Part shown: positions 1 to 16,824 of the stretch, one piece after another
Layout of the letters: each line of letters begins with the position of its first letter
Numbering within the stretch: the stretch's first letter is position 1
Assembly: GCA_019748175.1 (NCBI GenBank)
Contig: JAIEPX010000020.1
Span: 5,392-69,391 of the forward strand
Origin: Gammaproteobacteria bacterium
Lineage (GTDB): Bacteria > Pseudomonadota > Gammaproteobacteria > JAIEPX01
Reading direction: 5' to 3'
DNA: 64,000 bases
Program-made: the position numbers and the translations under genes
Notes under the pieces: model-generated
The model's input: only the letters and a program-made list of their open reading frames with translations
Told to the model about the DNA's origin: nothing
Databases searched by the model: none

Positions 1-549
1 TTGGATTGTGAATTTTCAATAGAAGCTCTTTTATTAAGAGTTAAATGTCAATCGTGTCTATGTGATTTTCAAAATGCATCCGATACAGTTTCGTTGATTC
101 AGAAATTAGGAGATAGAAGAGATGCCAGAATTGCAGTATCGTTGGCTGAGATAAAAAAATTCCAACTTGATGCGGCTCTAAGGCAGGCAGAAATCATTGC
201 CTTTCAGTCACAACATGAGCTGAATGATAAAGATACAATTAAAATGGCATTAAACCTGCGGCTACTTCATCAATATGAAAAGGCGCTATCTGTGTTGGAT
301 AGAGTAATGATGAATTGTGATGATGTTGATTTATTGGCCCCTGCTAAATTCATTCAAGCGGAGTGTTATTATTACATGCAACGCTATGGTGATGCTCAAG
401 AAAGCGCGGAGACGAGTAATCAATTAAAAGAACATGATAAAGTAAAGGAATTGCTCCGAAAAATTAAAGTAGCAGTATTTGTTCACTCAAATCTAGATGC
501 ATTATTTGCACACTTAGCCAATAGTCCACCTAGAACAATGATTTTTTAA
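1..549 (+). CDS. C-terminal fragment of a helical repeat (TPR-like) protein; 5' end lies outside the window
   Basis: Open from position 1. Alpha-helical amphipathic repeat pattern (e.g. ...ALRQAEIIAFQSQHEL..., ...AECYYYMQRYGDAQES...). No catalytic motif seen. Confidence 0.35.
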   Translation: MDCEFSIEALLLRVKCQSCLCDFQNASDTVSLIQKLGDRRDARIAVSLAEIKKFQLDAALRQAEIIAFQSQHELNDKDTIKMALNLRLLHQYEKALSVLDRVMMNCDDVDLLAPAKFIQAECYYYMQRYGDAQESAETSNQLKEHDKVKELLRKIKVAVFVHSNLDALFAHLANSPPRTMIF

Positions 550-1005
550 GTTAAACATAAAAAATTAACCTTCAATTCTATAGCAAGATAAAAATATACT
601 CAGCAATTCAATATTGCTATTGATGTCAAATTTTTCTTTGATTTTCATAATGTGATATTCAACGCTACGATTTGAAAAGTTTAAAACCCTCGCGATTTCT
701 TTCGCTGACATAATTAACTTCTAATGTTATTTGGGTAATCTCCTAGGTTACAGTTTATTTGTAATATATTGCTTTCCTAAAATCAGCATAAGCTGAATTA
801 TGAATGAAGTGGTACGAGTCTTAAACAGAGTATATTAGGTTCAAAAAACCACCGTATAAAATACGCAAACGACGAACATAATTCACATGATTAAATTAAC
901 ATATTTATTATAATTATATATTTCATGCTGAGGATAAAGCCATGCGAGATAGCAAAACAATAGGTGAGATTCTTGGGGCGATAACATCAAGTTTGAACGA
1001 ATAAG

Positions 1006-1773
1006 TTAGTCAATCTCGTTTTCTTTAATCCAATATGAGCTTTGCCAATCTATATGGACTATCTTTTCTTTTATATTATGTATTTTACGATAATAATCTG
1101 TGGCCTTTTTTTCATCACAAATGTCTAATCTATAATCATCTAAAACCACATAACCACCTATAGACAATTTAGGATATAATTGTTCCAAAGTCGTAAGTGT
1201 TGACTCATAAAAATCGCAATCTATTCTCAATATAGATAATGATTTTATTTTATCTGTTGGTAGAGTATCTTTAAACCACCCTTTCAAGAAAATAACGTTA
1301 TCAAACAGCAAATTGTATCGCGTGAAATTATCTCTAACGGTCTCTTCTGATATAAAAAGCCTATTCACATCCTCAACATTAGAATTATAATACATTTCTT
1401 TATCTAACTCTGTGTCAGGTATTGGTAATCCACAATAAGAATCTGCTAAAAACAATTTTTTATCTAATCTTCCTAATATGTATAGTATAGCCTGCATATA
1501 TATGGCACATCCACCTCTCCATACGCCACATTCAATTATATCACCATCGACCTTATTGTTTATGGTATTGAAAATAAACTGAAACATACTATCAAGGCGA
1601 GTAATGGTACACATTGAAAGCGCCCTGCCATGCCAGACATGTTGAAACACACGATCTGAAAAAGCGTCTTCCTTATTTTGCGTATCAACAACACCCTTGT
1701 CACAGCGTGTATTGAGTAAATCTAATACGCTGTTCTTGATGAGTTCCAGATAATCTAACTGAAATTGATTCAC
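1006..1773 (-). CDS. TylF/MycF/NovP-family SAM-dependent O-methyltransferase (macrocin-O-methyltransferase-like)
   Basis: Motif DIIECGVWRGGCAIYM matches the family hallmark (E-x-GV-x-x-GG). C-terminal LSILRIDCDFYEST matches the family (L-R-x-D-G-D-x-YEST-like). Size 255 aa. It is the 3'-most gene of a co-directional, tightly spaced operon. Confidence 0.6.
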   Translation of the reverse strand: MNQFQLDYLELIKNSVLDLLNTRCDKGVVDTQNKEDAFSDRVFQHVWHGRALSMCTITRLDSMFQFIFNTINNKVDGDIIECGVWRGGCAIYMQAILYILGRLDKKLFLADSYCGLPIPDTELDKEMYYNSNVEDVNRLFISEETVRDNFTRYNLLFDNVIFLKGWFKDTLPTDKIKSLSILRIDCDFYESTLTTLEQLYPKLSIGGYVVLDDYRLDICDEKKATDYYRKIHNIKEKIVHIDWQSSYWIKENEID

Positions 1774-1815
1774 TATAATGTATCCATTTTTTATAAGCGT
1801 ACAAAAAAGATTCGA

Positions 1816-2493
1816 TTAGCAAGGTTTCTCCAGCAGATCTATATAATCTAATACTTGAATAATATCATATAAAGCTTCGTAATAACCTAGATCATTAAAA
1901 GCGTTAAGGGTTGTATTCCCCGTCAGAATAGGCAGAAAGTCGACCTTAGAGTATGTTGCTACTTTAGCATCAACAATGTTATCGCCCACATATAATATAT
2001 TCTCTGCAGGTACATTCATATGCTGTATAATCTTGTTCATACCTTCGGTGTTTGGCTTATGCTTTAACACATCTTCTCCCCCTATAATACAATCGACAAA
2101 ATGTAAGAGATCATTATCTTCTAAAACTTGACTAATTGTTTCTCTGAGCTTGGTTGATAAAATAGCCACTTTGATTTGGCTATTCTTTAATGATGAAAAC
2201 AATACCCCAACATTGTTATAGACTACCGTACTTTTCCGCATTACTCTACTTGACATAGTTAAAAAATGTTTGACAAATTCAGGTATTTTATCATCTGTTT
2301 CACTACTATGTAACGTATTAAATGTACTAGCAAGATCAAGCCCTATAGTGTTTATAATATCTTCTTTGGGCGGAATCTTTAAGTTTAAAAATCTTGAAGC
2401 ATATTGAATAGACTTAACTATCCCCTTAGAGGAATCAGCTAAGGTAAAATCAAAGTCAAAAATTACTAACTCTTTGGTCATCTTACTAAGCAT
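1816..2493 (-). CDS. HAD-superfamily hydrolase (phosphatase, PGP-like)
   Basis: Motif I VIFDFDFTLADS (DxDxT). Motif III lysine region GGEDVLKHKPN. Motif IV YVGDNIVDAK. Confidence 0.7.
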   Translation of the reverse strand: MLSKMTKELVIFDFDFTLADSSKGIVKSIQYASRFLNLKIPPKEDIINTIGLDLASTFNTLHSSETDDKIPEFVKHFLTMSSRVMRKSTVVYNNVGVLFSSLKNSQIKVAILSTKLRETISQVLEDNDLLHFVDCIIGGEDVLKHKPNTEGMNKIIQHMNVPAENILYVGDNIVDAKVATYSKVDFLPILTGNTTLNAFNDLGYYEALYDIIQVLDYIDLLEKPC

Positions 2494-2505
2494 GCCATAT
2501 AACCC

Positions 2506-3363
2506 TTAGTATGTAACGTCACCGATGATACTAGTTCTATAGAGCAGCCTTTGAAGCTCGATAGGCGTATGAGTACCTCGATGTATAAGTGATGCATTAT
2601 CCCATATTAGTAAATCTCCTTCTAGCCACTTATGAGTATATATGAATTTCTCCTGCACTGAGTGGTCATTCAGTTGAGTTAATAAACTACGGTTTTCGTG
2701 TATATCATCCCCAATTATCTCCTTTATCGTCAGTTGGTTTAGGTAAAGGCTCTTCTTATTATTATGCGGATGTATTCTCACAATGGGGTGAACAACCTCT
2801 GGAAAAAATTCATCTAGATTGTCCTCGTATTTATTATTCCTTAATTCTTTAAATTGATGGCCGAAAGAGTGTATTGCTTTCAAACCAGCGATTTTATTCT
2901 TAACACTATCTGATAAACTGTTATAGGCAGCTCTCATATCTGAAAACATTGTGTCTCCCCCAATAGCGGGTCTTATTTTAGAATGGAGTATCGTATATTT
3001 TGATGGTCGACTTAAGAATGAATTGTCAGTATGCCAAATTTGGGCTGAACTTTTATAATCATAATTTTTTAATCCAATATTTGAAATCATATGCACATGC
3101 TCATTTTCTTGGCTGCGATCCTTCTTATCCCAAGTTATTTCCAGGTCACCAAACATTGAAGATACTTTTATCAAATCGGATTGAGATAAACACTGATTTC
3201 GAAATACTAAAATGTGATAATCATCCAGCAATTTTGTAAACATGCTTGCAAATCGTTCAGCTTCACTATTTAATAAATTACATCCTTTAATCTCTATGCA
3301 GTACCCAGATCCTAACATACTGCTTCTATATGGAAGCTTCGGTTTTGTACATTTAACATCCAT
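2506..3363 (-). CDS. TauD/TfdA-family Fe(II)/2-oxoglutarate-dependent dioxygenase
   Basis: HxD iron triad motif WHTDNSF. Distal His plus Arg in LIHRGTH near the C-terminus. Size about 285 aa. Start may be the internal Met (MLGSGY...), which would remove the 11-nt overlap with the upstream kinase gene. Confidence 0.6.
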   Translation of the reverse strand: MDVKCTKPKLPYRSSMLGSGYCIEIKGCNLLNSEAERFASMFTKLLDDYHILVFRNQCLSQSDLIKVSSMFGDLEITWDKKDRSQENEHVHMISNIGLKNYDYKSSAQIWHTDNSFLSRPSKYTILHSKIRPAIGGDTMFSDMRAAYNSLSDSVKNKIAGLKAIHSFGHQFKELRNNKYEDNLDEFFPEVVHPIVRIHPHNNKKSLYLNQLTIKEIIGDDIHENRSLLTQLNDHSVQEKFIYTHKWLEGDLLIWDNASLIHRGTHTPIELQRLLYRTSIIGDVTY

Positions 3364-3982
3364 AGATCAAATTCGTGTGAATAGCGACTACCTTGCTTTT
3401 AAGCTGAGTTACATTATCGTGAAAATGAGAATCCGATACTACAAAGTCTGCAATGTCTTTATAAGGCGACACATAATTCTCAAACATAGGCTTAATTTTG
3501 GACTCGTATCGACTTAACCCATATTCGACTACGTCAATTCCTCTGCATTTTAAATCTCGATTTAACCTGCGGGATAAGCATATATCTAACGGGGTATCAA
3601 TATATACTTTAATTGTAAACATCTTCGCCAACAAGGAATTCGTCATCAGTAACAAACCATCAACAAGTATGATTGGATTCGGCATAATTTTTTCAGCTTC
3701 TTCCACTCTCAACAATGTTGAAAAATCAAACTTTGGGCTTAAGATTGGAGTTTTTTCACAATACAGTTGTTTTAATTGCGTTATAAGTAATGTATGGTCT
3801 AGAGAGCTTGGGTGATCATAATCAATGTTTCTTCTTTCCTCATATGAAAGCTGATTAGAATTATGATAATAATTATCTTCTTTCAAACATGAACACCCAA
3901 CTTCATTTAATTGTGTTGCCAGAAGGTCCAGGAAAGTTGATTTTCCTGAACCACTGGCGCCGTAAATGGCTACCATAACCAT
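3353..3982 (-). CDS. Uridine/cytidine kinase family (Udk/PRK-type P-loop nucleoside kinase)
   Basis: Walker A IYGASGSGKST. Family motifs EDNYYH...YDHPSSLDHTLL and IKVYIDTPLDICLSRRLNRDLKCRG, resembling Udk D-x-YY...DHPDAFD..LL and DTPLDIRLARRLKRD. Confidence 0.75.
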   Translation of the reverse strand: MVMVAIYGASGSGKSTFLDLLATQLNEVGCSCLKEDNYYHNSNQLSYEERRNIDYDHPSSLDHTLLITQLKQLYCEKTPILSPKFDFSTLLRVEEAEKIMPNPIILVDGLLLMTNSLLAKMFTIKVYIDTPLDICLSRRLNRDLKCRGIDVVEYGLSRYESKIKPMFENYVSPYKDIADFVVSDSHFHDNVTQLKSKVVAIHTNLIYGC

Positions 3983-4004
3983 ACTAATAGCTCACAATTT
4001 ACAT

Positions 4005-4754
4005 CTAATTATTCAGTCCAAAACCTGATTGATGATCATGTTGATGCTGATCCTGAGGAGTTTTGCTGCTATGACTAGAAGCAAGTATTGGAGAATCATG
4101 ACGTATGGAAGCTGTTGAAGTACTGCTTTGTGCAAGTGATCTAATCATCTTAACCTTTTCAATTAATCGCGGATCAGAATTAACCAATAACTGCATAGGT
4201 TCATCACGTTCAAACTGTGTAGTTAAGTACCGAATCATACCAGGAAAGACAAAATCAGTTGCAGCTATTGGTAAAGGTGCCTTGATTTCCATCGATGTTA
4301 TTTTCTCTACCGCTTCTTTCAAATCTTCGACAACCACAACACTAGGATTTTTAACAAATGGATGAGTCCACCCCACAAGATCTTGCCCCAAACATTCTAC
4401 CTTCTTTGGTTTATAATGAGTTCCAGTAGGAGTCCAGCTTACAACTGGAACAGCTTTAAAGTTTGCGAAAGCCATTTCGTATCCAACACCTATCCCTCTT
4501 CTTTCCCTGCAGTCCGCTAATACGCAATCACTCAGATAAACTTGCAGCATATCACGACCAAACAAAGATAACTCATCTGATAAATCATCTGTTCGATGTG
4601 CGGGATTTAGAAAGCCTACTGTAACATCTTTTTCAGCCATCAGAGTCCTTAGTTGTTCTAAATGAAAATCGGTCCAATAAGAATTCTCTTCAGCAGAATT
4701 GCTTTTTTTAATACTACCTGACATATACAGAAATATCGATCTAGCTTTTTTCAT
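4005..4754 (-). CDS. Nucleoside 2-deoxyribosyltransferase-like fold protein (NDT, DNPH1/Rcl, MilB/BlsM-type N-glycosidase or transferase superfamily)
   Basis: N-terminal IFLYMSGSI resembles the YLAGP motif. Central CVLADCRERRGIGVGYEMAFANFKAVPVV resembles the NDT core (vvAnl..D.GT.fEiGyA.a.gKPVv). C-terminal about 90 aa is low-complexity (S/T/Q/H-rich). Confidence 0.5.
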   Translation of the reverse strand: MKKARSIFLYMSGSIKKSNSAEENSYWTDFHLEQLRTLMAEKDVTVGFLNPAHRTDDLSDELSLFGRDMLQVYLSDCVLADCRERRGIGVGYEMAFANFKAVPVVSWTPTGTHYKPKKVECLGQDLVGWTHPFVKNPSVVVVEDLKEAVEKITSMEIKAPLPIAATDFVFPGMIRYLTTQFERDEPMQLLVNSDPRLIEKVKMIRSLAQSSTSTASIRHDSPILASSHSSKTPQDQHQHDHQSGFGLNN

Positions 4755-4830
4755 ATATTACTCCTTTCAAAATAAATAATAATATGCTCGATTATATTCA
4801 TAATCGGGCTTGCCAAAAACAATTAAACTA

Positions 4831-5499
4831 TCAATCTACCCACCAATCAACCACAGGATCTTGTAGCTTTGCTGGTGTGATATACCGAGGCGCCTCATTA
4901 GGAGATTCAAAGATGTCTTCTCTAAAGTAAGTTCGCCCCGTCTCATTAAAGTGCTCTCTAATACTGTTACGAAGCTCAGGATTACTACCACGAGAAATAC
5001 CATGTTTGGCAAATGAAAACTCGGGTTGAAACAATATATATACTTTATTCGAGTCTGAAGCATTTCTTGAGTGATTTTCATCATAACAAGGAGCAAATGC
5101 TTTCACGAATAACCGCATATTTAAAAACGTGAATTGCCACTTCTTATCATTTACCTTTTTAGCGAGTGAATTGCCTTTTGAAGGGTCATTTTGGGATAAT
5201 ATAGATAATGCTTCCTTTGTGGTCTCAGCTAAGCTTTCTACTGAAGTACCGTATTCTGGTGGCATTGCGATGATGTATCCATCTAAATCTTTCTGATCCG
5301 CACTCTGAATAAACATTTCTAATGAAGGAATAATACTTAAGAGATTTTCCGTCAAACTTAAATGATTATTCCATTCAGGGCTGCCCCAGATTTTAGCTTT
5401 GGGAGCAAATGGACATCCTTGCATTTGAACTTTCTTAAATTCCTCCAAACAACCCGCATCCCCCGGGTCAAAACTAGCCTTATCACAAACAGCGTTCAT
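4831..5499 (-). CDS. Hypothetical protein, first gene of the minus-strand operon
   Basis: ORF 4831..5553. The internal Met (MNAVCDKASF...) is preferred as start. No recognisable motif. Co-directional with and 76 nt upstream of the NDT-like gene. Confidence 0.3.
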   Translation of the reverse strand: MNAVCDKASFDPGDAGCLEEFKKVQMQGCPFAPKAKIWGSPEWNNHLSLTENLLSIIPSLEMFIQSADQKDLDGYIIAMPPEYGTSVESLAETTKEALSILSQNDPSKGNSLAKKVNDKKWQFTFLNMRLFVKAFAPCYDENHSRNASDSNKVYILFQPEFSFAKHGISRGSNPELRNSIREHFNETGRTYFREDIFESPNEAPRYITPAKLQDPVVDWWVD

Positions 5500-5808
5500 A
5501 GAAACCTCCTTGGTTAGAAACTTGTATTTTACACAAAAATGCTTTTTCGTCAACTCGACTTTAATTTCGACATTGACACAAAGGGTACGTACACGAAATT
5601 AAAGCGCGATCTCGTTTTGTTCTCGCATGATAACTTGTGAATTCCAATCTGTAGATCTACTCATTGAATTAATATTGAAAATATAACTCTGTTTCTATGT
5701 TAATTTTTTTTCTTTACAGATCTTCAAGCATATGTTATTAATCAAAATACTAATTTACTCATTATTTTTCACAATAGTTAGAAATTTGATTGTGAGAGGA
5801 GAGTTAAG

Positions 5809-6633
5809 ATGAGCAAAAGTTCAGGGGTGAATTTAAGCAAGAATATAGCTATAAATCACAGCAGTATTGTTTCTGAAATATGTGAATCATTAAGTAAAGA
5901 TTTACAATTAACCTATTTCAATTATGTAAAACTCTATCCTGATGGTAAAAGAGCTCTTTTAACCAATCGACCCGAATGGCTGGAAGTGTTTTATGCGAAT
6001 GAGTTGTACAAACTTCCAGAAGTAAAAACAATAGAAAATCATCAGATTGGAGACTATCAACTTTGGGCAACTTATAGTGATCAATCTTCATTCGAAATTG
6101 CTAGTCAAGAACATAATATAGCAAACGGGATAACAATATCGATATCATTGCCTAATAATATCACTGAGCTATATTACTTTGGAACAACTCGTAATAATTA
6201 CCATATGCAAAATGTGTATCTTAACAACATTGATTCACTAGAGAGCTTTATTCGATATTTTAAAAACACAGGTGAAAAAATCATTGCACTCGCTGAATCT
6301 AATCTAATTGTTACTGAGCCAGAACCAAAGATCGAATTATTAGATATGGCATATATCAATGAAAAAATTGAAGAATTCATGAGCGAGTGCAAGGTGTCAA
6401 GTTATACTATTAATGCTAATGGTGTGAAGACGAAAATTACAAAAAATGAAGCGCAGTTCATTCGAGAGCTCGCCACAAACTTGTCTATCAGTGAAATTGC
6501 GCTACGGCTAAACAAATCAAAAAGAACAGCTGATGACTACGTGGAAAGGATAAAAGATAAATTTATGAGTGATAATATATCTCAACTAAGAAAAATAATC
6601 GCTCAAAATAAACTTGGAGATAAGTTGTATTAA
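5809..6633 (+). CDS. LuxR-family transcriptional regulator (C-terminal HTH) with uncharacterised N-terminal domain, no receiver domain
   Basis: C-terminal EAQFIRELATNLSISEIALRLNKSKRTADDYVERIKDKF is a LuxR/GerE-type HTH. Good RBS GAGAGGAGAG 7 nt upstream of ATG. 255-bp AT-rich promoter region upstream. Confidence 0.65.
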   Translation: MSKSSGVNLSKNIAINHSSIVSEICESLSKDLQLTYFNYVKLYPDGKRALLTNRPEWLEVFYANELYKLPEVKTIENHQIGDYQLWATYSDQSSFEIASQEHNIANGITISISLPNNITELYYFGTTRNNYHMQNVYLNNIDSLESFIRYFKNTGEKIIALAESNLIVTEPEPKIELLDMAYINEKIEEFMSECKVSSYTINANGVKTKITKNEAQFIRELATNLSISEIALRLNKSKRTADDYVERIKDKFMSDNISQLRKIIAQNKLGDKLY

Positions 6634-6645
6634 ATTATACAGCTA

Positions 6646-9600
6646 ATGAGTGATAAAATGCGACTAGCTGATTTAAAATTAGGATGCAATAATAATTTGC
6701 TTAATCATATATTAAAGTACTCAAAAATTTCACCTGACAAGACTGCGTTAACTTTCATTGATGACAACAACGAAATTTCTTATACATATGATGAACTATA
6801 TAAAAATATATGTGAACTCTCAGATAAATTGAAATTATATGGTCTTAGTGATTCTACGGCTATTCTTGCATTTAAACCATCAATTGAGTTTGTCATAGCC
6901 TATCTAGCATGTATCAAAGAAAAAATATTGGTTGGAGTTTGCCCAGCAATATCTACAAATAATATGATAAACGTAAACAAATATATTGATTTTTTAACTC
7001 AGGAGCTAAAGACAAGCATCATTATCGTTAATAATGATTCAAAAGACTACATCAACTTGTCGAATGTTAATTTGATAATTTTAAATGATCTTATCTCAAA
7101 TTACAATCGGAAAACTCTCGGCGCTGTAGATATAAATGTGACGGAAGACCAGAATATTCATATATTATACACGTCTGGATCAACCTCAAAACCAAAAGGT
7201 GTTATAGCTACAGAAAGCCAATTGCTATACAACATTAATTACACATCAAAGGTTTGGGGTTTCGATGAGTTAAGTACCAGCCTAACTATCGGTAATCATT
7301 ATCATGCTGCAACTATTGTAGCAGGTATTTTGTTACCATTAGTAAAAGGTGGGAGATGCATTATAATGCCAACTCAGTCCGTTTTAGATGACTCATCACA
7401 ATGGTTGCGGGTAATTTCTAAATACGGAGTAACACATGCTGGCGGCCCCCCTTATTTATATAAACTGTGCATCGATAATATAAAGCTTTTATCAACGGAT
7501 TCAACTCTGAAAAAATGGAAGGTTGCGTTTATCGGTAGTGAGGTTGTTTCTTACTCATTAATAAAGAAATTTTCAACTTTATACAGTAAATATGGTTTTG
7601 ATTACAATAATTTCTGTGTTAGTTATGGGATGACAGAAAGTAATGGATTAATATGTAGCACACCTCGCGACACACCACCTACTACGCAAAAAATTCGTAT
7701 AAATAGAGGGTTAAAGACATTCATGGGTTGCGGAAAAGCATCCCATGGAACACACGTATTAATAGTGAATAATTCAAAGGTGCTTAAGGATAAACAGATT
7801 GGAAAGATATATGTCAATAGCAGTTCGATATTAACTGACTACCACAATAGGTCTGATTCACAATTTTTGTATTATCAATCAAAGCGTTATTTCGACACAC
7901 AAGATTTGGGTTTTAAGAAGAATGGTGTGTTATATGTTATAGGTAGATCTGACAGGACTATAATAGTTAGCGGTCAAAATTATAATTTAGATGTCCTAGA
8001 GCAGGACATGCAATCAAATATTTGTCAAAAATACCATGTTATTAGCACTATTGCGAATTACAATGATTCTAAATTAGTTTTGATTTTAGTTTTCGATAAA
8101 GACAATGATATTGATATGATAGAATTATTTAATCAAGTCAGGATGTATTTGTTTACGTTTTATAGTGGTATAATAATCTCCGATATATACGTTATCCTCC
8201 ATGATGATTTACCCTACTCACAAAATAGAAAACTTCCAAAATTGAAAATTCTTTATATGATTAATGAGAAACATATTATTCCACTAAGACACTTCAGTAT
8301 ATCCACTCCAAGCTGTATAATTGAAAAAATCCTATTATTGTCAAATAAGGTAAGAAAAAATGAAACGCTCTCAGATAGCGAAGTTTTGTCTCTAAAAGAA
8401 TTATTAACATTGGACTCTATTCATTACGCCAATCTTATATATCAGTTAGAAAACATTTTTAATTTACGGTTAAAACTTACAGATATACTGAGTGCCAAAA
8501 CCATTGGTGACTTAATAATAAGTTTGGGTTTTGTTCCCTCAAAAAAACAAAGTGTTACTCTTCAAGCAAAGCCTTGTATAGTTAAGCCGCAATCGAATTA
8601 TGATACTAAAATGCCAAGATTAGATGAGAAAGGATCAACGTGTAACATACTATTAACTGGTGCTTTAGGTTTTATTGGTTCCCACCTGCTAAAGTTTTTG
8701 AGTCAGAACAAAGATAATAATATTTACTGCTTAATTAGAGAAAATAAAAGAACCACGTTTTTTTGCTATTTTTGTAATTCCACTAAAATATGTAATTGCA
8801 AAAATGAGCTAGAAAAAAACAATGTTACATTAATTGCCGGGGATACTGAACTAAAGAATTTTGGAATGAGTATTAAAAAATGGAGAAATCTATGTAATAA
8901 AATTGATGTTATATTTCATATGTCAGAATATGTTAATCACTTTGAAAAATTTGACTCTCTGTGGGCTATATATTCAGCGTCGTTAGATAATGTGCTGCAA
9001 TTTGCTTTTGCTTATAAACCTAAGAAATTAAACTACTTGTCCAGCTTGCCTGTTAATAATATATTAGAGCAAGTCACCACCTTTAATGAATTATTTGAAA
9101 GCCAACAGCTTAGGTGTAATTATTCAGGATACCTGCTTTGCAAGGCTGCTACAGAGTTAATTTTAAGAGACATATCTTCTAAGCACATTGCAATATCAAT
9201 ATTCCGTTTAGGCCAAGTTACATCTACTCTAGAAAAATTTGTGATTAATCAAAAAGATATATTCCATCAGTTGCTGCGATTGATTGCGATGACTGAAAAT
9301 TTGCCATTATCTAGAGCATTATATGTCAACGCTATTCCAATTGATGTATTAGTGGAGAGTATAATTCTACAGAACTTACAACCTATTTATCACAATGAAA
9401 ATTATTTTATATATAATATTTTCAACCCAGTAGAAAAAAATCTCAATCAATTATTCGATATAAATAATAACCCTACTAAAAAAGAAATTTCTTTTTTACA
9501 ATGGATTTCTGAAGCGCAGAAACATTTAAAGCACTTTAATGAGCCTATACGTAGAGTTATTTCTGAGCTATTATCAAATGATAGTAACTCACCGATAAAT

Positions 9601-9729
9601 TTTACAAAATATTTCATGACATATGCTGAATACCAAAATTCGTTATCGGTTATTGCGATGGGTGATGAGAAAGATGCTCTTAACATTTATGATATGTTGC
9701 TAACTAACATTAAGGATTATTTGCTATGA
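6646..9729 (+). CDS. Stand-alone adenylation (FAAL/AMP-binding), carrier protein, thioester reductase enzyme (NRPS-like or carboxylic-acid-reductase-like), 1027 aa
   Basis: A3 motif YTSGSTSKPKGV. A5 YGMTESNG. A7/A8 region YFDTQDLGF...IGRSDRTIIVSGQNY. Carrier-like LTLDSIHYANLIYQLENIF. Rossmann motif of TR domain ILLTGALGFIGSHLL. YxxxK in YLLCK. An unusual Cys-rich insertion FCYFCNSTKICNCKN sits inside the reductase domain. Confidence 0.8.
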   Translation: MSDKMRLADLKLGCNNNLLNHILKYSKISPDKTALTFIDDNNEISYTYDELYKNICELSDKLKLYGLSDSTAILAFKPSIEFVIAYLACIKEKILVGVCPAISTNNMINVNKYIDFLTQELKTSIIIVNNDSKDYINLSNVNLIILNDLISNYNRKTLGAVDINVTEDQNIHILYTSGSTSKPKGVIATESQLLYNINYTSKVWGFDELSTSLTIGNHYHAATIVAGILLPLVKGGRCIIMPTQSVLDDSSQWLRVISKYGVTHAGGPPYLYKLCIDNIKLLSTDSTLKKWKVAFIGSEVVSYSLIKKFSTLYSKYGFDYNNFCVSYGMTESNGLICSTPRDTPPTTQKIRINRGLKTFMGCGKASHGTHVLIVNNSKVLKDKQIGKIYVNSSSILTDYHNRSDSQFLYYQSKRYFDTQDLGFKKNGVLYVIGRSDRTIIVSGQNYNLDVLEQDMQSNICQKYHVISTIANYNDSKLVLILVFDKDNDIDMIELFNQVRMYLFTFYSGIIISDIYVILHDDLPYSQNRKLPKLKILYMINEKHIIPLRHFSISTPSCIIEKILLLSNKVRKNETLSDSEVLSLKELLTLDSIHYANLIYQLENIFNLRLKLTDILSAKTIGDLIISLGFVPSKKQSVTLQAKPCIVKPQSNYDTKMPRLDEKGSTCNILLTGALGFIGSHLLKFLSQNKDNNIYCLIRENKRTTFFCYFCNSTKICNCKNELEKNNVTLIAGDTELKNFGMSIKKWRNLCNKIDVIFHMSEYVNHFEKFDSLWAIYSASLDNVLQFAFAYKPKKLNYLSSLPVNNILEQVTTFNELFESQQLRCNYSGYLLCKAATELILRDISSKHIAISIFRLGQVTSTLEKFVINQKDIFHQLLRLIAMTENLPLSRALYVNAIPIDVLVESIILQNLQPIYHNENYFIYNIFNPVEKNLNQLFDINNNPTKKEISFLQWISEAQKHLKHFNEPIRRVISELLSNDSNSPINFTKYFMTYAEYQNSLSVIAMGDEKDALNIYDMLLTNIKDYLL

Positions 9730-10463
9730 ACACACTGAAGGAAAAGTGCAAAATACTAAAAGATAAGTTCGATATAGATTATTTTTGCTTAACAATGATA
9801 GATGATGATAATAGATCAATCATATCAAATATAGACGAGTTTGATGAGGTATATATTAGCGAAAAAATATTCAATTATGCTCCAGTATTTCAGCTGGAAA
9901 ATTCACAGGATGATATCTATTACATTTGGGACCTAAAATTTGATTATGAGGCTTTTAACATTCTTTCTAAGATTTATGGTGTGAAATGTGGAATAGGAAT
10001 ACATTCCAAAATTTTGAGCTCTAATCATGTGTATTACTTTTTCTCAAATAGCGATGTACCCATTAAGTATTTATATTTATTACATATGAATGGTGTATTT
10101 TATAGATTTGTCAATTATATTTTAGAAGAAATTGATGATAATAACCTTCGATTTGGCAAGCTAAAAATATCGCCCGATCATAATATAGAGGATGGTGTTT
10201 CGATAGCCGTTGATAGCAGCGCACTAAATAACGGTCTTGGCGAAAAGTTTTCTTTTCAAACATCTACTGGGAGCATCATATTAACTCAAAGCGAGCTTGA
10301 TATATTACGTCAGTATATTAAGGGATTATCAGCAAAGGAGATTTCAAGAGTTGTAAATAAATCTTATAGAACTGTTGAGGGCTATATTTCTCGATCTATG
10401 AGAAAATTGATGTGTGATTCAAAAAATCAGTTAATAATTAACTATTCAAGATATTTACTATGA
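9726..10463 (+). CDS. LuxR-family transcriptional regulator, paralogue of 5809..6633 in architecture
   Basis: C-terminal LTQSELDILRQYIKGLSAKEISRVVNKSYRTVEGYISRSMRKL is a LuxR-type HTH. Start overlaps the stop of the upstream gene by 4 nt (ATGA), suggesting translational coupling to the A-T-R enzyme. Confidence 0.65.
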   Translation: MNTLKEKCKILKDKFDIDYFCLTMIDDDNRSIISNIDEFDEVYISEKIFNYAPVFQLENSQDDIYYIWDLKFDYEAFNILSKIYGVKCGIGIHSKILSSNHVYYFFSNSDVPIKYLYLLHMNGVFYRFVNYILEEIDDNNLRFGKLKISPDHNIEDGVSIAVDSSALNNGLGEKFSFQTSTGSIILTQSELDILRQYIKGLSAKEISRVVNKSYRTVEGYISRSMRKLMCDSKNQLIINYSRYLL

Positions 10464-10540
10464 TGGTTATCGGTTCATGGAAAAAATATATCTAAGGTTG
10501 AATTGTATCATTTCTAAATTTTCGAAAAAGGCAAGTTTTT

Positions 10541-11383
10541 ATGTGTCAGCTGATTGGAATTGGATTGAGGCACCCACATATCCGGCAAGTGCTGGAGGAA
10601 TTACCGTCTGTGGGATGGTGGGAAATTCACAGTGAGAATTTTTTCCAGGCAGGCGGCCCTTCTTTAGAAAATTTACTTTCCATTCGAGAGCATTACCGAT
10701 TAAGTCTACATGGGGTAGGGCTTTCATTAGGTTCGTCATCTGGGATTGATGAGCAGCATTTGAGTCGATTGAAAAATCTCATTCAGCAGTTAAACCCATT
10801 TCTTGTTTCAGAACATCTTTCGTGGAGTAGAGTAGGAAATCTTTTTTTACCTGATTTGCTTCCGATTCCTTATACAAAAGAGAGCTTGGAAGTTATTGCT
10901 CGTAATATAGATCAAGTTCAAAGTTATTTGGGTCGAGAAATATTAATAGAGAATCCGTCTTCATATCTTGAATTTGCATCATCAGAAATGGAGGAGGAGA
11001 GTTTTTTGATCACGTTGTGCCAGAAAACGGGTGCAAAAATTTTGTTGGATGTGAATAATATTTTTGTCTCTTGCTCAAATCATGGATGGGATATGAATAA
11101 GTATATCGATTCCGTGCCCCCTGATTTAGTGAGAGAAGTTCATTTGGCGGGCCATTCTATTAAATCCATAACACCAGATCAGAAGATACATATAGACACT
11201 CACGATACAACAGTTGATGGAGCAGTTTGGGCGCTATATGGTTATGCAATATCAAAATTTGGCGCTAAGCCAACATTATTAGAGTGGGATGCACAGATTC
11301 CATCGCTTGACACATTAATAAAAGAATCGAGGAAAGCATTGGATTATCTGCCACAGGAGGTAATGGCAATTGAAAACACTTGA
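10541..11383 (+). CDS. DUF692 family protein (MbnB/TglH/HvfB-like TIM-barrel multinuclear-iron peptide-modifying enzyme family)
   Basis: Characteristic N-terminus GIGLRHPHIRQVLEELPSVGWWEIHSENFF. Length 280 aa. Immediately followed by an overlapping DUF2063 partner. Confidence 0.8.
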   Translation: MCQLIGIGLRHPHIRQVLEELPSVGWWEIHSENFFQAGGPSLENLLSIREHYRLSLHGVGLSLGSSSGIDEQHLSRLKNLIQQLNPFLVSEHLSWSRVGNLFLPDLLPIPYTKESLEVIARNIDQVQSYLGREILIENPSSYLEFASSEMEEESFLITLCQKTGAKILLDVNNIFVSCSNHGWDMNKYIDSVPPDLVREVHLAGHSIKSITPDQKIHIDTHDTTVDGAVWALYGYAISKFGAKPTLLEWDAQIPSLDTLIKESRKALDYLPQEVMAIENT

Positions 11384-12134
11384 GCAGATACAAAAAGATT
11401 TTTGCGATGCGATTCTGCACCAGAAATCCAGTGATTATCATTTTATTTCTTCATCGAATCCTATGGATCGTGTATCTATTTATAAAAACACGATTTTTGA
11501 TGCTCTTCGAAAAGCGCTGGCGGTAACCTTCCCAGGTGTTTGGATCTTATTAGGAGAAGAATGCGCCGATAATCTTGCAAGAGCATTTTGCAGTATCGAT
11601 GCTAATTTGCCTTTTTCAGGTTGTTTAGATGATTGGGGTGCTCAATTTCCTGATTTTATCTATCAACAAGAATCGCTTAAAAATTTATCGTATCTAAAAG
11701 ACTTTGCAGAATATGAATGGCTTAAACATTTATCATACAGCGCAGCATCTGTTATGATGCTCGAGTCAGATGCATTAGTTAGTATTGCGGAAGAAAATGT
11801 TGAAGCACTTGCATTCACTTTGCACCCATCTGTTTTTACAATGATGAGCCCATTTGCTCTCGATGAAATAGTCGACATAATAGAAAATCCTGACAACGCC
11901 ACTGTCAATTCTATTTCTAAGAAAACATACGCCCTAGTCGCCCGCCCGTATAATACCGTATTGACGTTTTGGGAGGGTGCTGATTTGTGGTTATTTATTG
12001 ATACTCTATTGAAAGGAAAAAGTTTGGGAGAATCCTTTCAAGCAGTAAAAAATGAGTTCCAGGATTTTGACTTAACTAATGCCGTACATTTTTTGCTGCA
12101 GCAGAAACTTTTAATCTCTATTGAATATAATTAA
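11370..12134 (+). CDS. DUF2063 family protein (partner subunit of DUF692 enzymes; putative DNA-binding-like fold)
   Basis: N-terminal Q..F..A(I)L...............RVSIYKNTIFDALRKALAVTFPGVW..LGEE.F..LARAF matches the DUF2063 signature. Overlaps the DUF692 gene by 14 nt. Confidence 0.7.
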   Translation: MKTLEQIQKDFCDAILHQKSSDYHFISSSNPMDRVSIYKNTIFDALRKALAVTFPGVWILLGEECADNLARAFCSIDANLPFSGCLDDWGAQFPDFIYQQESLKNLSYLKDFAEYEWLKHLSYSAASVMMLESDALVSIAEENVEALAFTLHPSVFTMMSPFALDEIVDIIENPDNATVNSISKKTYALVARPYNTVLTFWEGADLWLFIDTLLKGKSLGESFQAVKNEFQDFDLTNAVHFLLQQKLLISIEYN

Positions 12135-12626
12135 TTTATTTTTTGCATCAAGTTCTATTCTATCTCCAACTTTAATGTGTTGTTTGTTAAACCATCCAAC
12201 ATTAACTTCCAAAGCGTAAGGATATTCGCCCTTAGAGGCAGTGCTATGTTCGCGGAAAAAAGTTTTTTCAGGGCCCCAGTGCCAGTATTTGTCGATGTCA
12301 GAAAGCTTTTTCACGGGACGGTTGGGGTCCATTTTTTCAGGATAGGCCTTCATGTCGTAGATTTCTCTAATAGTAAAATTACTGTCGATGTAGGCTAAAG
12401 ATAAGTCGATGAAAGTATTGAACATCCAAAAATTTAATTTTTGAGCAGGATGGTAAATAAATAGCATTCCACTATTTTCAGGCAGAGAAGTTCTTCCCAT
12501 TAATCCCCATTCTCTTTCCGCAGAAGTTGCCGCCAATTCCACAGATAGGACTATTTTTTCCTCAGCGTAAGTAGCTATTGAGAGAAAAAAGAAAATCGTA
12601 AATAAAATTCGAGACACTGATTTCAC
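12111..12626 (-). CDS. DUF192 (COG1430) secreted protein
   Basis: Signal peptide MKSVSRILFTIFFFLSIATYA. Core SGMLFIYHPAQKLNFWMFNTFIDLSLAYID resembles DUF192. Lies 24 nt downstream of the PaaK-like gene in the same orientation. Confidence 0.45.
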   Translation of the reverse strand: MKSVSRILFTIFFFLSIATYAEEKIVLSVELAATSAEREWGLMGRTSLPENSGMLFIYHPAQKLNFWMFNTFIDLSLAYIDSNFTIREIYDMKAYPEKMDPNRPVKKLSDIDKYWHWGPEKTFFREHSTASKGEYPYALEVNVGWFNKQHIKVGDRIELDAKNKLIIFNRD

Positions 12627-12650
12627 CCTCTTATAAAATCTCCATAAATA

Positions 12651-13997
12651 TTATATTGAATTTAGTTTTGAGTCAAATGGTGTTAAGGATACAAATTCTT
12701 CGAATTTTCCGTTGGGTTGTCGAGGGATGTCGCTGTGAAATGTGAGTTCGATATCGAAAGGATAACCGAGATTTTTTTTGATTAGCTTTGAGTAACGATT
12801 TTTTTGGTCTGGTGTTAATGGGTTGTCCACAACAAGTTTGCATTCTATTTTTTTCAGATCATGCTGAATCATTTGGAATTTCTTTACAGCTTTGGTGATA
12901 TGACGATATTCTTCTCTTTCGCCAAGGTATGGAAATCGACTTTCGCCGTTAGGAAAAATAATGCGATTGCGTTTACGACCGCATATTTTTTTTATTGTAG
13001 GTAGAGCATCACGTCCACAAGGACAGGCGGTGTCCAGTTGGGCGTAGTCTCCAATGTCGTAACGAAGCAATGGTGTGGCGAAATTATGCAAACTAGTTAA
13101 TATTATGCGACCTTCTTCGCCTAATGCACTTGGTTTATCGTCATCATTTAAAATTTCTATGATGACATTTTCTGATTGTACATGATAATTATGGTATTCT
13201 GGACATTGAATTGCAATTATTCCAAATTCTTCAGAACTGTAAATATCCGTGAATTTAACAGGGTAGTTTTTTGACATTGAGATAAGTTCTGGATCTACGG
13301 TTTCTCCTAAACTTCGAATTTCTAGAAGATTTTGCAGTAGAATTTTTTGATCGATAATTTCTTGCAATACAATTTTAAGTTGCGATGGATAACTTAAAAG
13401 ATAATGAGGATTGATCATTTGAAGCCATTTGAGCTGGCTTTGTGTAGATGAAGCAATATTGAGAAAAAAGCCGGCACCAGTATTGATGATCCCTTCTGTT
13501 ACACTTCCCCAGTGTTTGTTGGTTTCGCCCAGTGGTGGTAGCGCTTCATTGCGTTTTGCCCAACGAATGGCGGCCAAAGTTTTGCTAAAGTCGCGTTGAT
13601 GCCACAAATGTTCTCGCATGGAGAGAGCTTGCCAGTAACAGGTGGTGTCAAAAGTCCCAATTAATCGTACAGCAACGCCCGTTGAACCCGATGTTACGAT
13701 CGGATAAGTGAAATCGTCAGCTTGCAGGGCAGTACTTTTTAAGGTGGTGTCTTGACCCGATTGCAGTTGTTGACGTGATAAAATCGGGAGCGACGACAAA
13801 AATTCTTGAGTGAGTGGTTGTGAAGGTTGGTAATTAGAATGTTCAAGATATTCTCGGTAAAAAGGCACAGTATTAAATGTGTGGGTAATAATTTGTTCTA
13901 GTCGAGTGAGCTGCCGAGTCCGCATGTAATCTGGTGAATACCACTGTGATTTCTCGAGAGATTCGATAATGTTTTTTACAACAGTTGTTTTATCCAT
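12651..13997 (-). CDS. Phenylacetate-CoA ligase (PaaK)/coenzyme F390 synthetase-like adenylate-forming enzyme
   Basis: Motif VTSGSTGVAVRL (TSGSTG). Length 448 aa and overall PaaK-like layout. Confidence 0.7.
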   Translation of the reverse strand: MDKTTVVKNIIESLEKSQWYSPDYMRTRQLTRLEQIITHTFNTVPFYREYLEHSNYQPSQPLTQEFLSSLPILSRQQLQSGQDTTLKSTALQADDFTYPIVTSGSTGVAVRLIGTFDTTCYWQALSMREHLWHQRDFSKTLAAIRWAKRNEALPPLGETNKHWGSVTEGIINTGAGFFLNIASSTQSQLKWLQMINPHYLLSYPSQLKIVLQEIIDQKILLQNLLEIRSLGETVDPELISMSKNYPVKFTDIYSSEEFGIIAIQCPEYHNYHVQSENVIIEILNDDDKPSALGEEGRIILTSLHNFATPLLRYDIGDYAQLDTACPCGRDALPTIKKICGRKRNRIIFPNGESRFPYLGEREEYRHITKAVKKFQMIQHDLKKIECKLVVDNPLTPDQKNRYSKLIKKNLGYPFDIELTFHSDIPRQPNGKFEEFVSLTPFDSKLNSI

Positions 13998-14010
13998 AGG
14001 TTAATTTATC

Positions 14011-15210
14011 TTACTGTGAATTTTGTATCATTAATCGAGTGATATATCTCAAGCTTGTAATGTTCCCCCATGCAGTTTGATTTGGAACTAATTTTGCTTC
14101 AGGTAAAATTTTAATAAATTGCTGTAGGGCAATCTCAGTTTCAAGTCTTCCAAGTACAGAGCCTAAACAAGTGTGTATCCCTTTTCCAAAGGCTAAATTT
14201 AATTGTTCTCTTTTTATATTGAGGCGATGAGGATCGTCAAAAATTTCAGGGTCTCGATTGGCAGCATTTAAAAGAGGCACAACGAGGGTATTTTCAGGTA
14301 TTTCAGTTTCATTAATGGTCACTGGGGCTGTGGTCCAACGAGATAACTTATTGAAAGGGGTTTCATAGCGTAAACATTCTTCTACAGCTTGAGTTATGAG
14401 GTTGGGGTGATTTTTTAATAATTCGATTTGATCAGGATGACGTAAAAGACTATAGATTGATAAACTGATAGCCAGTCGGGTGGTTTCATGTGCCGAAAAT
14501 ACTATAAAGGTTGTTGCGTCTGCTATTTGAGTATCATTTAGAGGCTCTTCCATTAAAGCATTATTTTCTATCACGTAGGATAAAAAGTTACTTTGAGGAT
14601 TATTTTTATAATCCGCTAGATAGTCGTGAAAAAATTGTCTTAAAGTAGGAAGTAATGTTTGTATGCTATAAACCTTATCAGATGAGCCGGTATCCAGATT
14701 TTGAGTAATGGTATCAGAATATAATTTAATAAATTGATTTTCGTGTGGCGGTAATCCACTAAGATCGCATACTACAGCCAAGCTGAGAGGCCCAGCGAAT
14801 TCAGATACAATATCAAATTGATCACGTTTTTTTAGTGACTGTAGTAAATGTTCAGATAAGGCTGAAATTGTATCAGCACGGGCACGAATAAATTTAGGAT
14901 TGATGGCTTTAGCGAAAAATTGGCGCATTTGGGTGTGTTTTGGCGGGTCTTGAAATATTAGCCAGTTCATCAAAAAGGCATCCATATCATTCTCACGTAA
15001 TTGCTCTTGAGTGAGTGTCTTGAAATGATGCGGTGGTCTTCGTGAGGTGTTTTTATTCGTTAATAAAGCAACCACGTCTTGGTATTTGGTTAGATAAATA
15101 ACACCGCTGTCATCTTGGTAAACAGGTTCTTTTTCTTGAATAAGTTGATAAGTGGGGTAAGGGTCGGCGATAAAATCAGGGTCATAAAAATCAAGTTTAA
15201 TTTTTTGCAT
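14011..15210 (-). CDS. Cytochrome P450
   Basis: Heme-thiolate loop FGKGIHTCLGSVLGRLE (FxxGxxxCxG). ExxR in ETPFNKLSRW region. I-helix-like FSAHETT. 399 aa. Confidence 0.85.
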   Translation of the reverse strand: MQKIKLDFYDPDFIADPYPTYQLIQEKEPVYQDDSGVIYLTKYQDVVALLTNKNTSRRPPHHFKTLTQEQLRENDMDAFLMNWLIFQDPPKHTQMRQFFAKAINPKFIRARADTISALSEHLLQSLKKRDQFDIVSEFAGPLSLAVVCDLSGLPPHENQFIKLYSDTITQNLDTGSSDKVYSIQTLLPTLRQFFHDYLADYKNNPQSNFLSYVIENNALMEEPLNDTQIADATTFIVFSAHETTRLAISLSIYSLLRHPDQIELLKNHPNLITQAVEECLRYETPFNKLSRWTTAPVTINETEIPENTLVVPLLNAANRDPEIFDDPHRLNIKREQLNLAFGKGIHTCLGSVLGRLETEIALQQFIKILPEAKLVPNQTAWGNITSLRYITRLMIQNSQ

Positions 15211-15888
15211 TTATTTTTTTCCTGGTGCGTCATTGGTGATATCATGAACGACGATAGCGGAATAGCTTAGGCTGTCTGAGTGCTCATAATAATTTTCAAT
15301 GATGTGACGTTGATCAGGAACATGAAAATGAATGCGACGATATTTTTCTAGTAGGGGATCTATGAGGCGTTTGCCAATGCGTATTTGAGCATAGTCTTGT
15401 GCAGATATAGCGCCGTTTTGTTTAATGTAGTTAGCGTAACCAGGTAAAATTGCACCCGCAATAATATAGTTAAGTTTTAATTTTTGTGCCAGCGCTAATA
15501 AATGAGGATATGGAGCTCCAAACAAATTATGTTGTTGGAAGGACTGTTCCACTACACCTGAAACAATATAGAGCGCGTTAGCATTTTGTGGTGGTTCCTG
15601 GTCGGCAAGAAAACCATTGTTGGTGATGTGATCCCAGCTACTGAAATTACTGAGGTTTTCGGAATTATAATGAACACAACATGTGCTGATAATATACGCC
15701 AATTGATTGTCAACGTAAGTTAAAAAAAATCCCTGCTCAAACTTTTCTATGCGTGATCGCATTTTTTCGATAGAGGCATGATGTTTGGGGTCTAGTGAAA
15801 AACTTTTTTCTACTTGCATGATTTCATTGAGATCTTCGAGTTTTGCCGTTCTTGTGTAAATATTATTTTTTGACATTGAATTACTCAA
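15211..15888 (-). CDS. GNAT-like N-acyltransferase (tentative)
   Basis: N-terminal AKLEDLNEIMQVEKSF is typical of GNAT proteins. No strong Q/RxxGxG/A motif identified. Its stop abuts the P450 start codon with 0 nt gap. Confidence 0.3.
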   Translation of the reverse strand: MSNSMSKNNIYTRTAKLEDLNEIMQVEKSFSLDPKHHASIEKMRSRIEKFEQGFFLTYVDNQLAYIISTCCVHYNSENLSNFSSWDHITNNGFLADQEPPQNANALYIVSGVVEQSFQQHNLFGAPYPHLLALAQKLKLNYIIAGAILPGYANYIKQNGAISAQDYAQIRIGKRLIDPLLEKYRRIHFHVPDQRHIIENYYEHSDSLSYSAIVVHDITNDAPGKK

Positions 15889-15939
15889 TTATTTATTTTA
15901 GAGGGGGCATATAAAATATGCCCCTCGATAGGCGATTTA

Positions 15940-16716: not shown

Positions 16717-16824
16717 ATTAACTCCTTTTAACATGAATAGTGAACAATGTTGGGCTAAAATATTCAATGTCGTGAACATTGTCAAGGGTATTATTAAATT
16801 ATAATATCAAATTTGCAAAACCTC

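Follow-up and report, generated by a model that had tools for sequence, protein, structure and literature searches.

The DNA analyzed here, called the window, is a stretch of 64,000 nucleotides (nt) of an uncultured gammaproteobacterium (assembly GCA_019748175.1, contig JAIEPX010000020.1, positions 5,392 to 69,391), and its first kilobases carry a minus-strand operon of six genes. The products, numbered 1 to 6, are a TylF/NovP-type S-adenosylmethionine (SAM)-dependent O-methyltransferase of 255 amino acids (aa) encoded by the last gene of the operon (1006-1773), a HAD-IA phosphatase of 225 aa (1816-2493), a TauD/TfdA Fe(II)/2-oxoglutarate (2OG) dioxygenase of 285 aa (2506-3363), a ribonucleoside 5'-kinase of the uridine-cytidine-kinase family with an altered base pocket (209 aa, 3353-3982), a DNPH1-like putative nucleoside-5'-monophosphate N-glycosidase of the nucleoside 2-deoxyribosyltransferase (NDT) superfamily (249 aa, 4005-4754) and, encoded by the first gene, a predicted thiolate-heme N-oxygenase of the YqcI/YcgG family (open reading frame 4831-5553). 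The spacing between the open reading frames is, in this order, 42, 12, -11, 22 and 76 nt, and both coordinates and spacings reproduced those of the original prediction, which had been made from the sequence alone.

The start codon of gene 6 is the ATG at 5499, preceded by an AAGGAGG ribosome-binding site, and therefore the operon ends at 5499. The resulting protein of 222 aa (4831-5499) was also chosen in the public gene call, and residues 1-24 of the longer reading frame were disordered in the structure model. The start of gene 5 at 4754 likewise carries a strong ribosome-binding site, while that of the dioxygenase gene is ambiguous (3363 or 3318, the latter giving 270 aa), and the overlap of 11 nt could become a gap of 34 nt.

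Selection on the operon was assessed with a second strain (L014; Logan contig, ERR12387328), in which the same locus is 99.6% identical to the window across 9999 bp. The six operon genes differed by 12 synonymous and 6 non-synonymous changes, and all nine genes compared by 13 and 7, respectively, where 75% non-synonymous changes are expected without constraint (binomial P of about 2e-4 for the excess of synonymous changes). This bias shows that the operon genes are maintained by selection; they are under purifying selection and are more than a chance assembly. The approximately 300 bp of non-coding DNA downstream of the operon (661-952) contained 10 of the 30 differences between the two strains and their sole indel (near 795), a density far above that found anywhere else in the 10 kb compared.

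A homologous six-gene operon was found in none of the collections searched, and the operon was seen in only one uncultured gammaproteobacterial lineage. Only the HAD, the YqcI protein and a regulator of the type of LuxR1, encoded divergently from the operon, recur together elsewhere. These data bear on the possibility that only chance brought the six genes together, or that they form a decaying mosaic without a common pathway, which would fit the singleton state of the operon and the fact that the NDT-like gene never accompanies the partner genes in other loci. Against it stand the shared strand, the gaps of at most 76 nt, the integrity of all catalytic motifs and the 12:6 ratio of synonymous to non-synonymous changes. 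The HAD, YqcI and LuxR1-type set recurs in independent loci, the HAD and YqcI domains even being fused, which speaks against a chance juxtaposition in the operon's core, and we regard this explanation as highly improbable. The operon is thus a real, selected singleton that combines known enzyme families in a way for which there is no earlier description; the original prediction knew of no described pathway with this composition, and neither such a pathway nor a homologous operon was found.

Methyltransferase, phosphatase and dioxygenase

Pfam searches agreed with the identities first proposed for the TylF, HAD, TauD and uridine-kinase-family proteins (1.4e-66, 3.1e-36, 2.2e-52, and 2.1e-25, respectively). 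Protein 1 matched PF05711 with 224.9 bits, as expected of the TylF/NovP family, and also matched NovP (2wk1; 3.3e-46) and MycF (1.5e-41). The motifs for SAM binding and acidic metal binding are present (ECGVWRG81, DCDFYES185, and DDY212). Protein 2 matched HAD_2 with 125.6 bits and contains the DxDxT motif (D13/D15) and motif IV (GDNIVD170); with the HAD domain of four YqcI fusion proteins treated below (P0071, P0083, P0124, and P0170) it shares 29-33% identity (1e-26 to 1e-34). Protein 3 matched PF02668 with 179 bits, and among solved structures it comes closest to TfdA-like and taurine dioxygenases (7.6e-36). The iron triad H111/D113/H261, the GGDT135 motif and the 2OG-binding R272 are all present, and no relative above 38% identity was found apart from its own entry (MBX9587299.1). 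The catalytic motifs of the three enzymes are therefore intact at the sequence level.

A nucleoside kinase with an altered base pocket

Protein 4 scored 184.4 bits with the udk model NF004018 (cutoff 180) and 158 bits with TIGR00235 (cutoff 220.3). Phosphoribulokinase, an identity that the original prediction had named as contrary to its reading, was tried and rejected, since uridine kinases of solved structure were matched far better (1e-24) than phosphoribulokinases (2e-13) and the udk equivalog lay above its cutoff. No relative was found in a scan of species-representative genomes.

Residues of protein 4 were mapped on human UCK2 through a HMMER alignment. The P-loop Lys33 (K14), the Mg ligand Ser34 (S15), the catalytic Asp62 (D36), Tyr65 (Y39), the ribose-binding Asp84 (D56) and Arg166 (R139), Arg169 (R142) and Arg174 (R147) are all kept. 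In UCK2, Asp84 and Arg166 choose ribonucleosides, and His117 together with Tyr112 sets base specificity (PMC9163393); uridine is a substrate only with His or Gln at position 117, where an aliphatic side chain gives a higher KM for cytidine (PMC5614712). His117 (in some kinases Tyr or Gln) and Tyr112 read the base by hydrogen bonds to the C4 substituent; they are replaced in protein 4 by L90 and F85, while Arg176 and Gln184 are replaced by I149 and R158, respectively. Thus protein 4 shares with Udk, UCK2, and ttCK the family, the P-loop, the catalytic Asp and the ribose-binding Asp and Arg, but differs from them at the C4-contacting sites and at the equivalents of Arg176 and Gln184. Because the ribose-binding and catalytic residues are kept and the C4-reading ones are hydrophobic, protein 4 is best described, as far as its residues indicate, as a ribonucleoside 5'-kinase adapted to a base with a difference at C4 or close to it, and this pocket predicts a substrate other than ordinary uridine.

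An orphan NDT-superfamily protein

Protein 5 matched no Pfam or NCBIfam family at E <=0.01 and no PDB sequence at E <=10, and a search with the profile of its family gave only a non-significant match to Rcl (E 2.2). The protein takes the flavodoxin-like NDT fold, with BcmB and MilB among the fold matches. The assignment to the NDT superfamily thus stood at the level of the fold, where an unrelated one had been conceivable, and not at that of Pfam, NCBIfam or PDB sequence matches. The segments LYMSGSIKK and GIGVGYEMA were aligned to LYFCGSIRGG and SLGVGYELG of a human DNPH1 sequence entered by hand (E 6.7e-4, hhalign probability 27%), a lead rather than database evidence, and in the same alignment, with its hand-entered template, E93 corresponds to the Glu of the DNPH1 motif GVGYE. 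Within the family of protein 5, E93, D68 and glycines are invariant and Y10 is nearly so, and the residues of the phosphate-loop-like GSI(K/R) and of the GVGYE catalytic motif are conserved throughout. Protein 5 is thus similar to DNPH1/Rcl in its fold and in the Tyr, GSI(R/K), Asp and GVGYE pattern of the active site, but differs by an additional helical domain at the C-terminus (about 70 aa) and by the family-specific invariants R54, D57, D60, R67, R83, and H131. Residues 216-249 (window 4005-4106) form a disordered, low-confidence tail rich in S, T, H and Q that has no counterpart in most homologues.

In the early steps of mildiomycin, bacimethrin and blasticidin S biosynthesis, a pyrimidine nucleoside monophosphate is modified and an NDT-superfamily N-glycosidase frees the modified base, and the MilB/BlsM/BcmB clade carries an N-terminal motif F-L-(G/A)-(G/A)-P-F-x-x-L that includes Phe22 and Arg23 (PMC4081090). 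Membership in this clade, to which the original prediction had linked the NDT-like protein, was rejected, as protein 5 reads F-L-Y-M-S-G-S-I-K-K and the consensus of its family is IYLSGSIKK. Protein 5 was concluded to be an NDT-superfamily enzyme with a DNPH1-like active site outside the MilB clade, and it is most likely a nucleoside-5'-monophosphate N-glycosidase, a function that we treat as putative. The pathways of MilA/MilB, BcmA-D, and BlsM resemble the operon through the fold matches of BcmB and MilB, but protein 5 has the DNPH1-like GSIKK and GVGYE in place of the clade motif, TauD, YqcI, HAD and Udk-type enzymes are absent from those pathways, and no thymidylate-synthase-like domain, as in a ThyA-like CMP hydroxymethylase of the bacimethrin or mildiomycin type, occurs in any of the six proteins. 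Genes for an O-methyltransferase and a kinase also occur in the bacimethrin cluster.

The family of protein 5 comprised 38 clusters among 5.8 billion proteins, all unannotated, and was present in 29 species-level genomes. Almost all of its members come from Chlamydiota and from other bacteria that are host-associated or predatory: the loci from the genome scan are mostly from Chlamydiota, with a few from Gamma- and Alphaproteobacteria, metagenome-assembled genomes labelled Verrucomicrobia and a Bdellovibrio. In 42 other loci, no homologue of Udk, TylF, HAD or YqcI was found within 8-10 kb of the protein 5 homologue, so that for this gene the partners were always lacking, a pattern that the original prediction had equated with chance adjacency. 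PLSDB plasmids contained no homologue of protein 5. In one locus (L005), the homologue and the end of an isoleucyl-tRNA synthetase-like gene overlap, and a TLC nucleotide transporter follows the homologue.

A predicted YqcI/YcgG-family N-oxygenase

Gene 6, labelled hypothetical in the original prediction, proved to encode a protein that belongs to the YqcI/YcgG family (PF08892, 44.9 bits, cutoff 27). Cys47 (numbering of the long reading frame) lies in a CPFA motif and was invariant in alignments of 25 and 11 sequences. The structure model (pLDDT 85.8) matched only the five crystal structures of AglA (E 1.7e-5 to 3.5e-4, TM 0.61-0.65), the next match having an E of 0.22, at a sequence identity to AglA of only 16-17%; a sequence search of the PDB with protein 6 retrieved nothing. 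The absolutely conserved N-terminal Cys of this family is the heme thiolate ligand (AglA Cys44, ChmN Cys47; PMC2922099, PMC10849742, PMC12866846), and the characterized members AglA, DcsA, GntA, ChmN, AmbT, and Mhr24 are thiolate-heme guanidine N-hydroxylases (PMC12866846, PMC10849742). With this Pfam family, the invariant N-terminal Cys and the sandwich fold of AglA in common, protein 6 is predicted to be a thiolate-heme N-oxygenase, but it differs from the characterized enzymes in belonging to a clade with MazG and HAD fusions and with links to genes of the cytidine-deaminase family. Mhr24 serves the pathway of the nucleoside antibiotic miharamycin, which also uses the GMP N-glycosidase MihI (PMC11188666, PMC8976061), but it acts on the arginine part of miharamycin and not on the nucleoside.

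The substrates of the characterized enzymes suggest an alternative in which the operon makes a guanidine- or arginine-derived product by a logic like that of the guanitoxin pathway: YqcI would N-hydroxylate a guanidine, the P-loop kinase would phosphorylate it, the methyltransferase would O-methylate it and TauD would hydroxylate the carbon skeleton. All characterized YqcI/YcgG enzymes do hydroxylate guanidines (PMC12866846), and in the guanitoxin pathway the N-hydroxylase GntA acts together with the kinase GntI, the methyltransferase GntJ and the 2OG hydroxylase GntB (PMC12371840), so that four of the six families fit; the locus L053 also has an Orn/Arg decarboxylase-like neighbor. The operon, in contrast, encodes none of the amino-acid-handling enzymes (pyridoxal-phosphate-dependent, ATP-grasp or nonribosomal peptide synthetase), its kinase keeps the Asp and Arg that bind the ribose 2'/3'-OH and the catalytic Asp of nucleoside kinases, the NDT-fold protein is left unexplained, and the closest relatives of protein 6 are fused to MazG/HAD while AglA is distant. 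A guanitoxin-like pathway is accordingly considered quite improbable.

Fusions and neighbors of YqcI relatives

A word-indexed search with protein 6 retrieved only the protein itself, while an exhaustive search retrieved 621 relatives, the closest with 43% identity and many of them fusion proteins. The N-terminal domain of about 175 aa in these fusions is a MazG-type nucleoside triphosphate pyrophosphohydrolase: 14 of 15 members matched PF03819, and its profile matched YpjD and a structure described as nucleotide pyrophosphohydrolase (1e-15) and, more weakly, MazZ and dCTP pyrophosphatase 1. Of the 149 nearest cluster representatives, 52 have this domain, as do 14 of the 20 closest, and four MazG-YqcI fusions also bear an N-terminal HAD domain homologous to that of the operon. 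No paper naming both YqcI and MazG was found in a literature search. The MazG/HAD-fused clade is undescribed, and its recurrent fusions, as judged from the domain architectures, tie N-oxygenation to nucleotides and are the most informative comparative signal obtained.

In two loci (L044 and L074), a gene of the cytidine/dCMP-deaminase family is followed by a HAD-MazG-YqcI fusion and then by a convergent GerE regulator, and in L074 the deaminase-family gene overlaps the fusion gene. The proteins of the two loci are only 42-48% identical, and therefore the deaminase, HAD-MazG-YqcI and LuxR1-type set is a conserved module. The presence of Rep3, TraL and Arc on the same locus suggests that the module of L074 is plasmid-borne; no full HAD-MazG-YqcI fusion was found among PLSDB plasmids. 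In a third locus (L075), the fusion gene is followed by genes for a Fer2-domain protein, a PolyA_pol-family nucleotidyltransferase and an MFS transporter, the Fer2 protein being, by analogy, a plausible redox partner of the fusion. AglA itself uses a PDR/VanB reductase.

A compact cluster from a soil metagenome (L055, 1009-6886) encodes a methyltransferase, a PNP_UDP_1 protein of 627 aa from the nucleoside phosphorylase superfamily, YqcI, an HD/YfbR-like 5'-nucleotidase, an O-methyltransferase and an unannotated protein of 205 aa. This is a non-orthologous analogue of the window operon, repeating its logic with non-homologous parts. A YqcI-methyltransferase fusion was found in L050 (650-1930). 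In a single observation, a MOSC/YiiM-family gene (L046, 6666-7376) lies divergent to a MazG-YqcI fusion; this family reduces and detoxifies N-hydroxylated base analogues (PMC3831636, PMC5818509), and the gene may serve self-protection. Two short metagenome contigs, possibly eukaryotic, carry an Arf-family small GTPase domain fused to a YqcI domain (L059, 3666-5096; L061, 41-1504), and one relative, P0075, has a DUF1801 at its C-terminus.

The same associations underlie the most serious rival of a biosynthetic role, namely sanitation or catabolism of a non-canonical nucleoside or nucleotide, in which the kinase would trap the compound, the DNPH1-like enzyme and the HAD would dismantle it, and the oxygenases and methyltransferase would detoxify the base, the MazG-HAD-YqcI relatives being house-cleaning enzymes. 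House-cleaning is a classic role of the MazG, HAD nucleotidase, DNPH1 and cytidine deaminase families, the MOSC/YiiM neighbor of one YqcI relative belongs to a family of detoxifiers, and the NDT-like family stands alone in host-associated bacteria, once beside the TLC nucleotide transporter. An O-methyltransferase with two oxygenases, however, follows an anabolic tailoring logic; L055 holds two methyltransferases and L075 a nucleotidyltransferase and an MFS transporter, the module of L074 is probably plasmid-borne, and the window operon is located in a low-GC island with other specialized-metabolism genes, beside LuxR-type regulators. On this balance we judge a sanitation role unlikely.

A further explanation is chemical defense against phages or competitors, in which a nucleotide analogue such as an N-hydroxylated pyrimidine nucleotide would be made in situ and would cause mutations or terminate chains, similar in principle to the prokaryotic viperins. 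The enzyme set would act on nucleotides, a related module is probably plasmid-borne, and the cytidine-deaminase-family and MOSC neighbors could give self-protection. Opposed to this, PADLOC matches were only P-loop and helix-turn-helix noise, no phage genes are located nearby, and LuxR-type regulation with biosynthetic neighbors suits secondary metabolism better, so that such a system appears very improbable.

Proposed pathway

The interpretation that we prefer, and to which we give about an even chance, is that of a horizontally acquired biosynthetic operon, probably under the control of LuxR1, whose enzymes modify a ribonucleoside or ribonucleotide. From the gene set, catalytic motifs, folds, selection and associations described above, we infer its substrate, site of N-oxygenation, order of steps and product as follows. 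First, the Udk paralogue would phosphorylate the 5'-OH of a ribonucleoside, without recognizing its base at C4 as that of ordinary uridine or cytidine. Second, the YqcI thiolate-heme enzyme would N-hydroxylate an amidine- or guanidine-type nitrogen of the base, relying on an external reductase for which the window has no gene. Third, the TauD/TfdA dioxygenase would hydroxylate a C-H of the anionic intermediate, and fourth, the TylF-type methyltransferase would O-methylate one hydroxyl. Fifth, the DNPH1-like N-glycosidase would free the modified base and ribose 5-phosphate, as MilB and BcmB do, or alternatively the HAD phosphatase would free the modified nucleoside. The most likely product would be an N-oxygenated, O-methylated small molecule derived from a nucleoside or nucleobase. 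The claim of the original prediction that the operon serves a modified nucleoside or nucleotide pathway and not salvage gained from the kinase pocket, the DNPH1-like motifs and the MazG/HAD-fused YqcI clade, and lost from the solitary state of the NDT-like gene elsewhere. The position of the island next to other specialized-metabolism genes also supports biosynthesis.

Several observations weigh against the biosynthetic interpretation. Enzymes of the MazG, HAD, DNPH1-like and deaminase types are also typical of nucleotide house-cleaning. The operon contains neither an exporter nor a reductase, protein 6 itself is without a MazG domain, and the contexts of the close relatives in L045, L047 and L053 give no link to nucleotides. 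The full set lacks comparative support, as it has no homologous six-gene operon, in 42 other loci the NDT-like gene has none of its partners nearby, and the DNPH1 alignment used a hand-entered sequence and has a hhalign probability of only 27%. In addition, all characterized YqcI/YcgG enzymes use arginine-type guanidines and not nucleobases (PMC12866846, PMC10849742).

A more specific proposal, which we consider possible but rather doubtful, is that the MazG/HAD-associated YqcI clade, including protein 6, comprises the first nucleobase or nucleotide N-hydroxylases. Its products would be N-hydroxy (here O-methylated, N-methoxy) pyrimidine or purine nucleosides or bases, for example N4-hydroxycytidine-like compounds, natural products that would act as mutagenic antimetabolites or as signals for the co-conserved LuxR1-type receptors, and the producer would be protected by the cytidine-deaminase-family and MOSC genes. 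Bases with an N-hydroxyl group are strong mutagens and serve as antiviral pharmacophores, and we know of no natural biosynthetic source of them; enzymes that make them would be useful biocatalysts. If correct, the operon and its relatives would open a biosynthetic route, so far unexplored, to metabolites that are N-oxygenated nucleosides or nucleobases, and YqcI/YcgG thiolate-heme chemistry would extend from arginine guanidines to nucleotides. Because YqcI is recurrently paired with LuxR1-type regulators, host-associated bacteria may possess a signal derived from a nucleoside together with its receptor, and testable predictions follow for the orphan family of protein 5 (38 clusters, mostly Chlamydiota) with its DNPH1-like active site.

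Control region, regulators and surrounding genes

The operon is separated from the divergent gene of LuxR1 by an intergenic control region (5500-5808) with a candidate promoter and an inverted repeat. The promoter-like site is located on the minus strand at 5553-5526 and is a candidate, as the promoter and terminator scan as a whole was not enriched over shuffled sequence. A perfect inverted repeat of 11 nt (5559-5569 and 5594-5604) lies just upstream of it and is a candidate operator. The 12-mers GTTAGAAAYTTG and TATTTTWCACAA occur beside both divergent start codons (5513-5536 and 5763-5788) in swapped order; they may mark sites for a regulator or may have arisen by chance in this AT-rich DNA. 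An Rfam search of window 1-12000 revealed no riboswitch or other RNA.

Next to the operon, the LuxR, A-T-R and LuxR genes noted in the original prediction were found on the plus strand at 5809-6633, 6646-9729, and 9726-10463. The first encodes LuxR1, a GerE-type regulator with a weak GerE match and an N-terminal domain of about 200 aa, which is homologous over its full length to the regulators of L044 (26%, 8e-21) and L074 (28%, 1e-23). LuxR1 is a probable pathway regulator or receptor and probably controls the divergent promoter region. The second encodes a protein of 1027 aa with FAAL-like adenylation, carrier and thioester-reductase domains (A-T-R; AMP-binding 2.4e-39, NAD_binding_4 8.7e-33), whose best NCBIfam matches are fatty acyl-AMP ligase and thioester reductase models. 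The A-T-R gene is located in the same low-GC island as the operon, and no homologue of it was found near any related YqcI locus. The third gene, which overlaps its end, encodes the GerE-type regulator LuxR2 (GerE 7.9e-11), 24% identical to LuxR1. The GC content is 29-36% across the first 10.5 kb or so of the window and 37-45% in the remainder, which suggests that this low-GC part is an acquired island.

Directly after LuxR2, the region 10541-12134 encodes a BufB-type MNIO maturase of ribosomally synthesized and post-translationally modified peptides (RiPPs; NF050167, 363 bits, cutoff 310) and then a DUF2063 protein, which together look like a bufferin-type RiPP maturation pair. On the minus strand, the block 12111-16785 encodes a DUF192 protein, a PaaK-like AMP-dependent ligase, a P450 with a cyclodipeptide-synthase-associated subfamily as its best match (TIGR04538, 2e-48), an unannotated protein of 225 aa and an outer-membrane beta-barrel protein. 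This block is possibly another small biosynthetic cluster, of which the protein of 225 aa could be the synthase. Housekeeping genes start at about 17.3 kb of the window, and the salvage genes deoB and pdxY, which the original prediction had placed away from the operon, were found as deoB-like and pdxY-like genes at 54935-56155 and 46919-47767, respectively.

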